Part shown: one piece after another, positions 10,790 to 13,163 of the stretch
Layout of the letters: each line of letters starts with the position of its first letter
Numbering within the stretch: position 1 is the first letter of the stretch
Virus record (IMG/VR): IMGVR_UViG_2526164663_000038
Source of the DNA: a virus
Taxonomy: Duplodnaviria > Heunggongvirae > Uroviricota > Caudoviricetes
Strand: one strand, 5' to 3'
Length of the DNA: 13,163 nt
Program-made: the position numbers and the translations under genes
Notes under the pieces: generated by a model
Database searches by the model: none
What the model was told of the DNA's origin: nothing
Seen by the model: the letters and a program-made list of their open reading frames with translations, nothing else

Positions 10790-11014
10790 ATGAAAATCAG
10801 ATATCATGATTTCGGCCCCGTGTCACATATGCTTATTTCCAGTACGGTGCTGGAAACAAGAAAACATAATCACATACTGGATATGCTGCGTCTTGCTGAC
10901 CCGTATCTGGTAATAAACACCAGTGGAATTTTCTTTCTGAGAAGCACTGTGTCAGGAAAAACATCGCATGTGCTTCGGGCATATAAAACAGCAGTGCGGG
11001 AGGAAGGAGAATGA
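10790..11014 (+). CDS. Hypothetical small protein (74 aa)
   Basis: ATGA overlap with the next gene; weak SD; no recognisable motif. Confidence 0.35.
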   Translation: MKIRYHDFGPVSHMLISSTVLETRKHNHILDMLRLADPYLVINTSGIFFLRSTVSGKTSHVLRAYKTAVREEGE

Positions 11015-11367
11015 GCGAGATTAACTATCAGGAGCTGCGTGTTGAGCTGGGAGCAGCAAAAAAACGCATAGAAGAGCTGGAGGCTAATCGTGTGGTGCTT
11101 GAGGTGGAAAATGAGAGGTTGAAACACGCAATGGCCGTAGCCCTTGAGCATATATCCGTCACAGATGCAGGACAGGCAGGTGTCGCTGCAATGATTATCT
11201 ATGATGCCATGTACCACAGTGAAAAAACTGACCCCTACGCTTTTCTGGCAGAATTGCGGGCGCAGGGTGTGGAGATGGTGCGCGAACATCCAGCAATCAA
11301 ACTTTGCTCTTTGACGCACATATGTGACGAGTTAGTCGCAGAGCTTCGCAAAGGAGGCAACAAGTGA
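11011..11367 (+). CDS. Hypothetical protein with N-terminal coiled coil (118 aa)
   Basis: Strong SD AGGAAGGAGA; heptad-like ELRVELGAAKKRIEELEANRVVLEVENERLK. Confidence 0.55.
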   Translation: MSEINYQELRVELGAAKKRIEELEANRVVLEVENERLKHAMAVALEHISVTDAGQAGVAAMIIYDAMYHSEKTDPYAFLAELRAQGVEMVREHPAIKLCSLTHICDELVAELRKGGNK

Positions 11368-11552
11368 GTAAAACGAATCCGGGCTGGGCAAGGCCACTTA
11401 TGGCGAAAAAGCATCATTATTTTGCTGAAGGTGAAATAACAAGTACTTGCGGTGGGTGGATGTATTTTGGCAATGAGCGTGAGCCGGATACATTCGAAAG
11501 TCCAGATGATTGTAAAAAGTGTCGTAGAAAATTAAATAAGGGGGGTAAATGA
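11364..11552 (+). CDS. Small Cys-containing protein, putative zinc ribbon (62 aa)
   Basis: GTG start with AAGGAGG 6 nt upstream, GTGA overlap with upstream stop; Cys pattern STCGGW...CKKC. Confidence 0.5.
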   Translation: MSKTNPGWARPLMAKKHHYFAEGEITSTCGGWMYFGNEREPDTFESPDDCKKCRRKLNKGGK

Positions 11553-11860
11553 GCGCAATTAAAGAAATGCCAGTGGAACGTAATGAATATGGCTGCTGGA
11601 CGCATCCTGAATATGAAAAATTCTGTGATGGTCGGGAATATATTTCAACGGAAGAGTTTAACGCCTGGATGGAGAAAAATAATCTTCAGTGGGCTATCCG
11701 TAGTATGGATGAAGATGATTTTAATCTGGACGCAGATGGCCCTGATATTTCAGCATGGGAACCTGAGCGACCAGAAGGTGAGGGATGGTTTATCGGTTCG
11801 ATACATGACACCGAAGATGGTCCTGTTTGTGTATGGCTGAGAAATAAGGCCGAAGCATAA
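11549..11860 (+). CDS. Hypothetical acidic protein (103 aa)
   Basis: ATGA overlap with upstream gene, GGGGGG SD; Trp-rich acidic sequence. Confidence 0.5.
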   Translation: MSAIKEMPVERNEYGCWTHPEYEKFCDGREYISTEEFNAWMEKNNLQWAIRSMDEDDFNLDADGPDISAWEPERPEGEGWFIGSIHDTEDGPVCVWLRNKAEA

Positions 11861-11986: not shown

Positions 11987-12550
11987 ATGACTGAATTAAC
12001 CAAAGAATGGCTACAGTACACGATTACCGGAATTGAGTCATCACGGGATGAAATACCGTTCGGACTCGATGAAGATCAAAACAACATGCTTACCGCATTA
12101 AAAATTGCACTGGCATCACTGGCATCAGTATCGGATGAACGGGCAGCCTATGAATTATTTATGGAGAAGCGTTTCGGGGAATCTGTAGATCGCCGCAGAG
12201 CAAAAAATGGCGATAGAGAATACATGGCATGGGATATGGCGCTTGGCTGGATTATCTGGTGTCACCGCGCCGCCATGCTTCAGGCTGGAAACTTTCGGGA
12301 AAATAAGGGTTCGTCAACCAATAATTTTCGGATAATCTCGGAAACGTCAACCAACTCTCCGGCAATCCCTGATGAGGTGTTGTCCGCAATCCTGAAGGTC
12401 GCCAGGCTTCGTGCAGATTTCGATGCTTCTGAAGTGGACAGGCGAGGTATCGGTAGTTGTCTGGATGAGGCCGAGCAAGAACTTATCGTTACCATTAACG
12501 AATACGCCAGTCAGATCGCAGTAGAAGCGACACAGGGGGAGAACCAATGA
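11987..12550 (+). CDS. Hypothetical protein (187 aa)
   Basis: Long ORF with protein-like composition; preceded by two hairpins instead of a clear SD; its stop overlaps the start of a 25-codon hydrophobic ORF. Confidence 0.55.
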   Translation: MTELTKEWLQYTITGIESSRDEIPFGLDEDQNNMLTALKIALASLASVSDERAAYELFMEKRFGESVDRRRAKNGDREYMAWDMALGWIIWCHRAAMLQAGNFRENKGSSTNNFRIISETSTNSPAIPDEVLSAILKVARLRADFDASEVDRRGIGSCLDEAEQELIVTINEYASQIAVEATQGENQ

Positions 12551-12624
12551 GCCGGCCAGATGCATTTGCAGGCGTTGCTATAGCTATTGCTTTTCTAGTA
12601 TATGTTATTTGTCGGTGGGGGTAA
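12547..12624 (+). CDS. Putative 25-aa single-helix hydrophobic peptide
   Basis: Not in the track. ATGA overlap with the 187-aa gene stop; MSRPDAFAGVAIAIAFLVYVICRWG. Confidence 0.3.
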   Translation: MSRPDAFAGVAIAIAFLVYVICRWG

Positions 12625-12659
12625 AAACGTTCGCCGGGATTCACACCAAGGGAGGGAAT

Positions 12660-12764
12660 ATGTCGGATGATATTTCACTGGTAATGGAAGGCGCTCTGGC
12701 TGTTATTGCTGTTGTGGGTGTTTACTGCCTGGTTGTGTTTTTGATGGAGCGCCTGGGGAACTGA
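12660..12764 (+). CDS. Putative 34-aa single-helix hydrophobic peptide
   Basis: Not in the track. ATG 12660 preceded by AAGGGAGGG; MSDDISLVMEGALAVIAVVGVYCLVVFLMERLGN. Confidence 0.4.
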   Translation: MSDDISLVMEGALAVIAVVGVYCLVVFLMERLGN

Positions 12765-13007
12765 ATTCATTCCGTATGGGAATTCCCATATCGGGCAAAA
12801 CGGTTTGCTGTAAAGCGAGAGTTAAGTAGAATTGCTGCGGGTGCTTGAGGCTGTCTGCCTCGGGCATGCCACCGTAAGGCAGACAGAGAAAAGCCCCAGT
12901 TAACATTACGCGTCCTGCAAGACGCTTAACATTAATCTGAGGCCCAATCTATGCTTCACAAACGTAGGTTAGCCTCTTACGCGCCGAAAGGCAAGGAGAA
13001 GCAGGTT

Positions 13008-13163
13008 ATGAAGCAGCAAAAGGCGATGTTAATCGCCCTGATCGTCATCTGTTTAACCGTCATAGTGACGGCACTGGTAACGAGGAAAGACCTCTGCGAG
13101 GTACGAATCCGAACCGGCCAGACGGAGGTCGCTGTCTTCACAGCTTACGAACCTGAGGAGTAA
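13008..13163 (+). CDS. hokD: Hok-family type I toxin (51 aa), HokD/RelF-like
   Basis: MKQQKAMLIALIVICLTVIVTALVTRKDLCEVRIRTGQTEVAVFTAYEPEE matches my recollection of E. coli HokD; SD AAGGAG 9 nt upstream; structured leader; in-frame upstream ATG at 12951 gives the 70-codon track ORF. Confidence 0.85.
   Translation: MKQQKAMLIALIVICLTVIVTALVTRKDLCEVRIRTGQTEVAVFTAYEPEE

Follow-up and report, generated by a model that had tools for sequence, protein, structure and literature searches.

Conserved genes for small hydrophobic peptides directly upstream of hok in lambdoid prophages of Escherichia coli

Two very short open reading frames (ORF) for hydrophobic peptides, squeezed between a gene for a 187-aa protein and the hokD-type toxin gene of a lambdoid prophage, raise the question of whether they are genes at all and, if so, with which of their neighbours they belong. 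The question comes from a 13,163-nt stretch of DNA of a tailed virus (Caudoviricetes; IMG/VR record IMGVR_UViG_2526164663_000038), hereafter the window, in which the 187-aa gene (ORF187) is followed by a 25-codon ORF (ORF1), a 34-codon ORF (ORF2) and hok. The initial annotation, made from the sequence alone, considered ORF187 and the two peptides as one coupled unit and suggested that the latter could be further toxins, a holin/antiholin-like pair or membrane partners of ORF187. Here, we report that ORF1 and ORF2 are genuine conserved protein-coding genes for single-helix hydrophobic peptides and that the conserved linkage is between ORF2, with or without ORF1, and hok rather than between ORF187 and the peptides. 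The two products are probably single-helix inner-membrane microproteins, expressed in lysogens, with an accessory role and linked to the hok cassette, not to ORF187.

The layout read initially from the sequence holds, including the ATGA overlap between the ORF187 stop codon and the 25-codon ORF and the strong Shine-Dalgarno (SD) sequence of the 34-codon ORF (Table 1). Neither small ORF is in the track supplied for the initial annotation; ORF1 is missing from RefSeq as well and is annotated now and then elsewhere (ETJ68712, ASL59204), whereas RefSeq does include ORF2. ORF1 is intact in about 120 of 126 loci and encodes 27 aa in most relatives, compared to 25 aa here; an in-frame 6-nt indel was observed in it. 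Transmembrane prediction and ribosome profiling had both been put forward as checks: each peptide contains a single strongly hydrophobic 17-residue window (mean Kyte-Doolittle hydropathy of 2.66 for ORF1 and 2.95 for ORF2), and published profiling data, described below, show an ORF2 homologue to be translated.

Family searches were performed with a 51-aa upstream-extended ORF2 frame, a family hidden Markov model and degenerate DNA patterns (L and P numbers below denote loci and protein hits, respectively). The ORF2 family comprises peptides of 29-34 aa with the core A[IV]xAV[VM][GA][IV]YCL[VA][VI][FV]L[MI][DE][RH], and the window ORF2, which contains the core motif AVIAVVGVYCLVVFLMER and ends 40 nt 5' of the hok -35 element, is a member. 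Four lineages were recognized. Lineage A is the type found in the window, whereas lineage B, found through protein hit P0058, is represented in gut metagenomes (L129-L132) and IMG/VR (L133) and has the peptides MTLPDAFAIVGITIAIAIIVYSICRWL (ORF1) and MSDDILLAMEGALAVVAVMAIYCLVVFLIDRRGS (ORF2). Lineage C, retrieved with the ORF2 profile, consists of a 30-aa relative (MLAALKGFVAILAVVAIYCLVVVLMDRLSD) that E. coli TA447 encodes between an ORF6N gene and hok, with neither ORF1 nor the palindrome that precedes hok in the window. When used as a query, lineage C DNA matched 1,440 of 5,426 complete E. coli genomes, and each match that was opened contained a GTG-initiated 29-aa relative, lineage D (MLVLKCALAI[AT]AVMAIYCLA[VI]VLMDRLSD), mostly unannotated, with a stop codon 7 nt 5' of the hok -35. 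RefSeq lacks the majority of lineage D copies; those of BL21(DE3) and REL606 are labelled 'membrane protein' in GenBank, and a lineage D-type ORF is also present in phages mEp460_ev081, Evi, Tritos and HannyBb. The lineage C/D ORF is intact in about 118 of 120 IMG/VR loci. The lineage A/B-type small-ORF segment was found in 732 of the same complete genomes, a set whose overlap with the 1,440 retrieved by the C/D query was not determined. Carriers of the family thus include BL21(DE3), REL606, enterohaemorrhagic E. coli (EHEC) O157 and O26, several temperate phages and, as a relic, Shigella virulence plasmids.

No members outside E. coli and Shigella were found in the genome, protein and phage/plasmid searches. 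The ORF2 profile matched E. coli peptides only among 1.84 billion representative proteins, the 51-aa extended frame retrieved only E. coli relatives from 5.8 billion proteins, and a scan of 185,579 species-representative genomes for codons specifying VYCLVVFLM (not the lineage C/D motif) yielded two chance hits, in an archaeon and in a member of the Flavobacteriaceae.

A lineage D-like ORF is carried by 124 Shigella plasmids (pINV). The copy in Shigella flexneri pCP301 (L140, 1725-1814) is an intact 29-aa ORF (MLVLKGTLAIAAVMTIYCLIVVLMERFSD) with an ATG start and a GGAGG; it is followed by a decayed, truncated hok leader, lies about 285 nt upstream of icsP/sopA and looks like a prophage relic. 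Probable annotation problems were noticed at two other copies, namely, in HannyBb (L141, 2437-2726), where two minus-strand 'hypothetical proteins' are drawn over the small ORF and the hok leader, and in BL21(DE3) (L138, 2159-2518), where the DUF977 gene call has been extended over 40 nt of the 29-aa ORF in a different frame.

That these ORFs encode proteins follows from comparisons between the lineages. Between lineages A and B, the proportions of synonymous (pS) and nonsynonymous (pN) differences, estimated by the Nei-Gojobori method, were 0.60-0.78 and 0.19-0.25, respectively, for ORF1 (Fisher p 1e-5 to 7e-3) and 0.32-0.49 and 0.11-0.15 for ORF2 (Fisher p 2.5e-4 to 0.07), with omega of about 0.5-2.5 in the other two frames (0.8-2.5 in the ORF1 off-frames). 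For the 24-codon ORF2 core across lineages A-D, the mean pS was 0.55 and the mean pN 0.24, and the Shigella pINV copy differed from lineage D with pS of 0.38-0.52 and pN of 0.11-0.14. Indels are multiples of three, namely, the 6-nt indel in ORF1 and a 9-nt duplication encoding AVV in ORF2 (P0061); of the spacer that separates the two ORFs, the first ~20 nt are scrambled between lineages A and B and the CAAAGGAGGGAAT-ATG is invariant; and changes of the start codon from ATG to GTG retain its function as a start. Because lineages A and B differ in a synonymous-biased manner in the called frames, the lack of such bias in related prophages, which the initial annotation had named as the outcome that would count against the small ORFs, did not materialize, and both stand as conserved coding sequences.

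ORF2 is, moreover, translated. Its homologue in O157:H7 Sakai is XECs145, a 'novel small gene' detected by ribosome profiling (RIBOseq) and classed by the authors as 'real' and as a predicted inner-membrane protein (Huecker et al., 2017, PLoS One, PMC5597208, S2/S8 tables). In LB, XECs145 had a transcriptome value of 79.1 reads per kilobase per million (RPKM), a translatome RPKM of 346.1, a ribosome coverage value (RCV) of 4.35, against a group mean of about 2, and an ORF coverage of 0.99; in the BHI control, the respective values were 121.3, 150.1, 1.14 and 0.84 (PMC5597208). XECs145 corresponds to ORF2 itself (allele MSDDISLAMEG...LMDRLGN) and occupies the same place upstream of hok, but was annotated from an upstream non-canonical start (MCYLSV...), whereas the SD-preceded ATG is the likelier one. 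It was one of 465 candidates and was not followed up; neither ORF1, nor the family relationship, nor the linkage to hok was described (PMC5597208). A structured leader hiding the ORF2 SD was considered and rejected, the ribosome-binding site (RBS) region folding like shuffled sequences in both lineage A (z 0.01) and lineage B (z -0.25). The lineage D ORF is preceded, at a distance of about 45 nt, by a promoter-like TTGAA[TG]-N17-CATATT that persists even where the flanks diverge; this points to a separate transcript of the peptide gene, which would extend into the hok promoter region. The search for terminators came up empty in every lineage. Literature searches with the peptide sequences and WP accessions returned nothing, the EDL933 translatome supplements have no entry for the peptides, and the Pro-SMP and uropathogenic E. 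coli small-proteome papers contained nothing relevant.

What the peptide genes are consistently found with is hok. A hok leader follows the small ORFs at every lineage A/B locus read, and hok follows in 92 of the 102 lineage C and D loci in IMG/VR with enough flank, so that nearly every peptide copy examined has hok, or what is left of it, next to it. The stop codon of the ORF2-family gene lies 7-40 nt upstream of the hok -35 in lambdoid prophages and phages; in the window, about 75 nt separate the end of ORF2 from the start of the hok transcript. The putative hok promoter, read from the sequence, is nearly invariant in the alignment that includes L002 and L003, and the Rfam sok/hok-leader match begins 7 nt further on.

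ORF187, by contrast, is an interchangeable neighbour and not a specific partner of the peptides, since the upstream genes differ among loci; it belongs to a module-shuffled, DUF551-associated 'beads-on-a-string' family of prophage proteins. It consists of an N module, a linker (AMLQAGNFRENKGSSTNNFR..STN) and a C module (VLSAILKVARLRADF...); residues 1-98 match PHROG 660/60 and residues 93-181 match PHROG 14306, whereas Pfam gave no hit and hence no DUF551 domain (PF04448). Most of its 4,319 relatives are alike only over residues 1 to ~135 and then continue into DUF551. Thus, ORF187 shares the N module and linker with thousands of DUF551-containing, Ead/Ea22-like modular prophage proteins but lacks DUF551 and stops after the PHROG 14306 module, which is internal in longer relatives, where a second linker and DUF551 come after it. 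The N module also occurs in EaA/Ea22/DUF551 genes of sequenced phages at about 97% identity.

The gene that runs up to the ORF1 start is built in many ways across the 126 loci, with a variable N module and a low-complexity linker (AMLQAGNFRENKGSSTNNFREISETSTN) followed by either DUF551 (..WMPLPEPPQEVRQ) or a window-type module (..VTINEYASQIAVEATQGENQ); at one of these loci, the upstream gene ends in ..EDVLR, and in a metagenomic lineage, in ..EDALR. The same peptide pair, accordingly, comes after at least three different C-termini (DUF551 ..PQEVRQ, window-type ..TQGENQ and ..EDALR), and copies of the small-ORF segment with 88-90% identity sit after a DUF551 protein and not after ORF187. Common to all of them are the ATGA (or TAATG) junction and an SD-like GGAG(G) located 5-7 nt before the ORF1 ATG, for instance, a GGAGG 7 nt before it within an unrelated DUF551 C-terminus (L002/L003/L005). 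ORF1 is an add-on, predicted to be translationally coupled through the overlap and the internal SD to whichever modular gene precedes it. The three-ORF unit suggested at the outset is not conserved, and with it falls the notion of a 187-aa protein coupled specifically to two peptides.

Several observations weigh against the reading of the peptides as expressed, hok-linked accessory microproteins. Divergence within lineage A is low (88-100% identity), the non-coding flanks there are about as conserved as the ORFs, and ORF1 has no third-position bias in this lineage alone, with 3, 5 and 6 variable columns at the three codon positions; these counts were biased by the search pattern and too shallow, and were replaced by the between-lineage tests. 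Because the diversity is shallow, amounting effectively to four lineages in one species, the dN/dS tests rest on few independent branches, and recombination among the prophages is rampant. ORF1 is confined to two of the four lineages (A and B) and is absent from C and D; its common allele A17D, present at 41 of the 126 loci, puts an Asp into the helix, and another allele lacks two C-terminal residues. The Sakai RIBOseq reads may be shared among several near-identical prophage copies, and ORF1 is shorter than the 30-aa cut-off of that study and hence was outside its reach. In the window allele, no recognizable plus-strand promoter was found for the peptides, so that their expression in lysogens may be read-through. 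Finally, with fewer than 50 nt in between, the persistent proximity of the peptide genes to hok could have arisen by mere co-inheritance.

Table 1. Features of the ORF187-hok region, with positions in the 13,163-nt window
Feature	Position	Strand	Remarks
ORF187	11987-12550	+	RefSeq WP_000137957 (hypothetical); predicted soluble modular prophage protein
SD-like GGGGGAG for ORF1	12535-12541	+	Inside the last ORF187 codons; GGAG to ATG, 5 nt
ORF1, 25-codon ORF MSRPDAFAGVAIAIAFLVYVICRWG	12547-12624	+	Start overlaps ORF187 stop, ATGA 12547-12550
ORF1-ORF2 spacer, 35 nt	12625-12659	+	Last 14 nt, CAARGGAGGGAAT, hold the ORF2 SD
ORF2 SD AAGGGAGGG	12648-12656	+	3 nt 5' of ATG 12660
ORF2, 34-codon ORF MSDDISLVMEGALAVIAVVGVYCLVVFLMERLGN	12660-12764	+	RefSeq WP_001278460, 'hypothetical protein'
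Palindrome CCG-TATGGGAATTCCCATATCGG	12772-12794	.	In the interval from ORF2 stop to hok -35
Putative hok promoter, TTGCTG (12805-12810), 16-nt spacer, TAGAAT (12827-12832)	12805-12832	+	Read from sequence
hok mRNA leader/sok region	12839-13013	+	Rfam RF01794, 114.9 bits, E 4.5e-27
mok frame, 70 aa, overlapping hok	12951-13163	+	'MokW-like' in phage records
hokD-type toxin gene, 51 aa	13008-13163	+	Pfam PF01848, 82.9 bits, E 1.2e-23; RefSeq hokD WP_000813254

The window is identical to a lambdoid prophage located beside potC/ycfZ in E. coli O26:H11 11368 and many EHEC strains. The gene order of this prophage is repressor, cro, ydaT-like, dnaT-like, P, DUF1627, four small genes, ORF187, ORF1 and ORF2, hokD, DUF968, rusA and a Q-like gene. 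In the Qin prophage of K-12, relBE had been placed in the initial annotation just upstream of hokD, and relB-relE-hokD is indeed the arrangement in the equivalent slot, which in the window is filled by a different gene set, as stated there. Upstream of ORF187 (11011-11860), the window encodes further small modular prophage proteins, namely, an Ead/Ea22-like 118-aa protein (weak PF13935, PHROG 492), a Cys-rich 62-aa protein (PHROG 2358), for which RefSeq uses a later start (50 aa), and a 103-aa protein (PHROG 1372).

Other features of the peptide/hok region are variable. The palindrome between ORF2 and hok is a perfect 24-mer (CCGATATGGGAATTCCCATATCGG) in most lineage A copies (L002/L003, alignment columns ~309-332) and in PPompW (L126, 2524-2547), where the small ORFs are missing; the window copy has a 1-nt deletion, that of L129 is degenerate, and lineages C and D have none. 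Because the predicted hairpin is devoid of a U-run, the palindrome is not a classic terminator; candidate roles are those of operator, RNA processing site and recombination joint. The same insertion sequence (IS) element is found within the hok SD (..GGCAAGGAGA|TGTATGGGTCC..) next to three different peptide alleles (L022, L032 and L055), with ORF1 and ORF2 intact, which suggests recurrent or spreading inactivation of hok. The peptide/hok block is bordered, just upstream or downstream, by a cargo slot containing relBE in K-12 Qin (L142), paa/adfO in PPompW (L126), an AIPR abortive-infection protein in L136 and two unknown genes in L137; in L002, a helix-turn-helix and ImmA/IrrE pair lies 3' of hok, and in L133, a C5 DNA methyltransferase stands in place of the hok coding region.

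As regards the relationship between the two peptides, an origin as tandem paralogues was considered and not upheld, because the best alignment reached p 0.0075 but, tested with composition-preserving shuffles, the majority of the 30 comparisons gave p >0.05. Nor do ORF1 and ORF2 appear to be one gene split by a read-through stop codon or a programmed frameshift: although a single TAA separates them in the shared frame of L129, the spacer measures 35, 33 or 34 nt, so that the frame relation is not kept. In P0049 and P0052, a 1-nt change in the G5 run (equivalent to 12617-12621) or the T6 run fuses ORF1 to the ORF2 frame, resulting in 74-aa two-helix proteins; these look like homopolymer variants and may be either sequencing errors or natural phase-like variants.

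In form and expression, the closest counterparts of ORF1 and ORF2 are small regulatory proteins of the E. coli inner membrane, such as MgrB, AcrZ, MgtS, CydX and KdpF, which are harmless single-pass peptides of 25-50 aa with good SD sequences that bind larger membrane proteins. ORF2 resembles them in hydropathy, SD and RIBOseq signal and ORF1 in hydropathy, SD and translational coupling; they differ in being prophage-borne, confined to a single species and not homologous to any of these proteins. As to the traits of morons, the ORF2 homologue is expressed in lysogens, a conserved promoter-like site precedes lineage D, no promoter was found for the window allele, and no terminator was found in any lineage. 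The peptides would be expected to insert in the inner membrane as single helices, to be tolerated as non-lethal microproteins expressed from the prophage, and to play an accessory, moron-like role which would be genetically tied to hok/sok yet not needed for its operation; membrane insertion and any activity are inferred.

Among the alternatives to an accessory role of this kind, the one that fares best is a functional partnership with Hok, in which ORF2-family peptides, alone or together with ORF1, would damp, delay or potentiate pore formation as a protein antidote or co-factor on top of the RNA control of hok/sok. All four diverged lineages lie directly 5' of the hok promoter even though the intervening DNA is unrelated (lineages C/D lack the palindrome of A/B). 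Lysogens, in which hok has to stay silent, translate ORF2, and its helix contains a conserved Cys (YCL); Hok activity itself depends on Cys chemistry. Nevertheless, we consider such a partnership unlikely. Most hokD-type loci are devoid of the peptides: a 1,101-nt query including the hok leader matched 4,320 genomes, compared to 732 for the A/B-type and 1,440 for the C/D segments, and in 933W and PPompW hok is present and the peptides are absent. Conversely, the peptide is intact where hok is disrupted by an IS, replaced or lost (L022/L032/L055, L133, L139 and the 124 Shigella pINV), and the same Hok (WP_000813254) occurs with different peptide lineages, so that the two do not co-vary. A more specific and quite doubtful version is a three-component hok/sok system, in which a constitutively produced ORF2-family microprotein would bind Hok or its membrane target and set the threshold for killing, with ORF1 as a second subunit in some lineages.

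The idea that either peptide, or both, might be a further type I-like membrane toxin stems from their being small, hydrophobic and single-helix, as judged by the 17-residue windows, and encoded beside a type I toxin. Known toxins of this kind, including TisB, ShoB, Ibs, Ldr, DinQ and ZorO, are likewise 19-35 aa long with a single hydrophobic helix. ORF1 and ORF2 differ from these in having a strong accessible SD, no NCBIfam or Pfam match and no cognate small RNA. Indeed, the search of toxin families advised in the initial annotation came back empty, with no Pfam, NCBIfam or PHROG family scoring above noise for either peptide. With Hok/Gef and its mok/sok, the peptides have in common the small size, the single inner-membrane helix, the prophage location and physical adjacency, but not the sequence, the periplasmic C-terminal domain, a mok-like coupling frame, an antisense RNA or a folded leader. 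Neither peptide matched the HOK_GEF profile (PF01848) at E<=1, whereas the neighbouring hok scored 82.9 bits, and local alignments to Hok were no better than with shuffles (p 0.09-0.5).

The other hallmarks of type I systems are an RNA antitoxin and translation that is held off. On the first count, an Rfam scan recognized sok, which serves hok, and no antisense RNA family for the peptides, and the one candidate is a weak minus-strand promoter-like site, TTTACC-17-TATACT (12625..12597, 9/12 matches), antisense to the 3' half of ORF1 and not accompanied by a terminator; an antisense RNA for ORF1 is, therefore, not supported. Lineage B has TTTATA-17-TATACA at this site, again with no terminator after it, and the conservation may only mirror the Val-Tyr codons. 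On the second count, the RBS is unstructured (z 0.01), and ORF2 is among the genes with higher ribosome coverage values in growing Sakai cells (RCV 4.35 in LB; PMC5597208), unlike silenced type I toxins. Since the ribosome occupancy of the ORF2 homologue is high in growing lysogens, a silenced toxin is disfavoured, and we regard the peptides as decidedly improbable further toxins.

Very improbable is the possibility that the ORFs are non-functional, so that their conservation reflects recent ancestry or a constraint on the DNA 5' of hok and RIBOseq picked up no more than noise. The restriction of the family to one species, the low divergence within lineage A, the missing third-position bias of ORF1 and the equally conserved flanks are all compatible with such an explanation, but between lineages the synonymous sites are near saturation and the replacement sites are not, in the called frames only; the SD is invariant within a diverged spacer; the indels are multiples of three; and the RIBOseq coverage reaches 0.99 with an RCV of 4.35. 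Scarcely credible, finally, is a holin/antiholin-like pair or membrane anchors for ORF187, as might be imagined for two tandem small transmembrane peptides the first of which is translationally coupled to ORF187, given that the peptides are encoded among early-right (replication/nin-like) genes, with the replication genes on one side and hok/DUF968/RusA on the other, and not within a lysis cassette, that a separate cassette with a class II holin, lysozyme and Rz-like genes lies about 8 kb downstream (L001, 23049-24476), that at 25-34 aa they are shorter than known holins, and that most loci have unrelated C-terminal modules in place of ORF187.

That ORF2 exists and is translated had been reported before, without a function. 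As far as the searchable literature shows, new are the evidence that ORF1 is coding, the ORF2 family with its four prophage lineages and the Shigella plasmid relic, the position of this family directly upstream of hok, and the exclusion of ORF187 as a partner. Small membrane proteins are under-annotated, and few of those borne by prophages have a known role; at the level of annotation, our results correct the absence of ORF1 and most lineage D copies from RefSeq and the minus-strand mis-calls in HannyBb. If the peptides were mere passengers, the result would be an ordinary one. The question raised is whether a microprotein expressed in lysogens modulates a classic type I toxin or has an independent accessory function; should the three-component arrangement prove true, some hok/sok cassettes would consist of a toxin, an RNA antitoxin and a membrane modulator.

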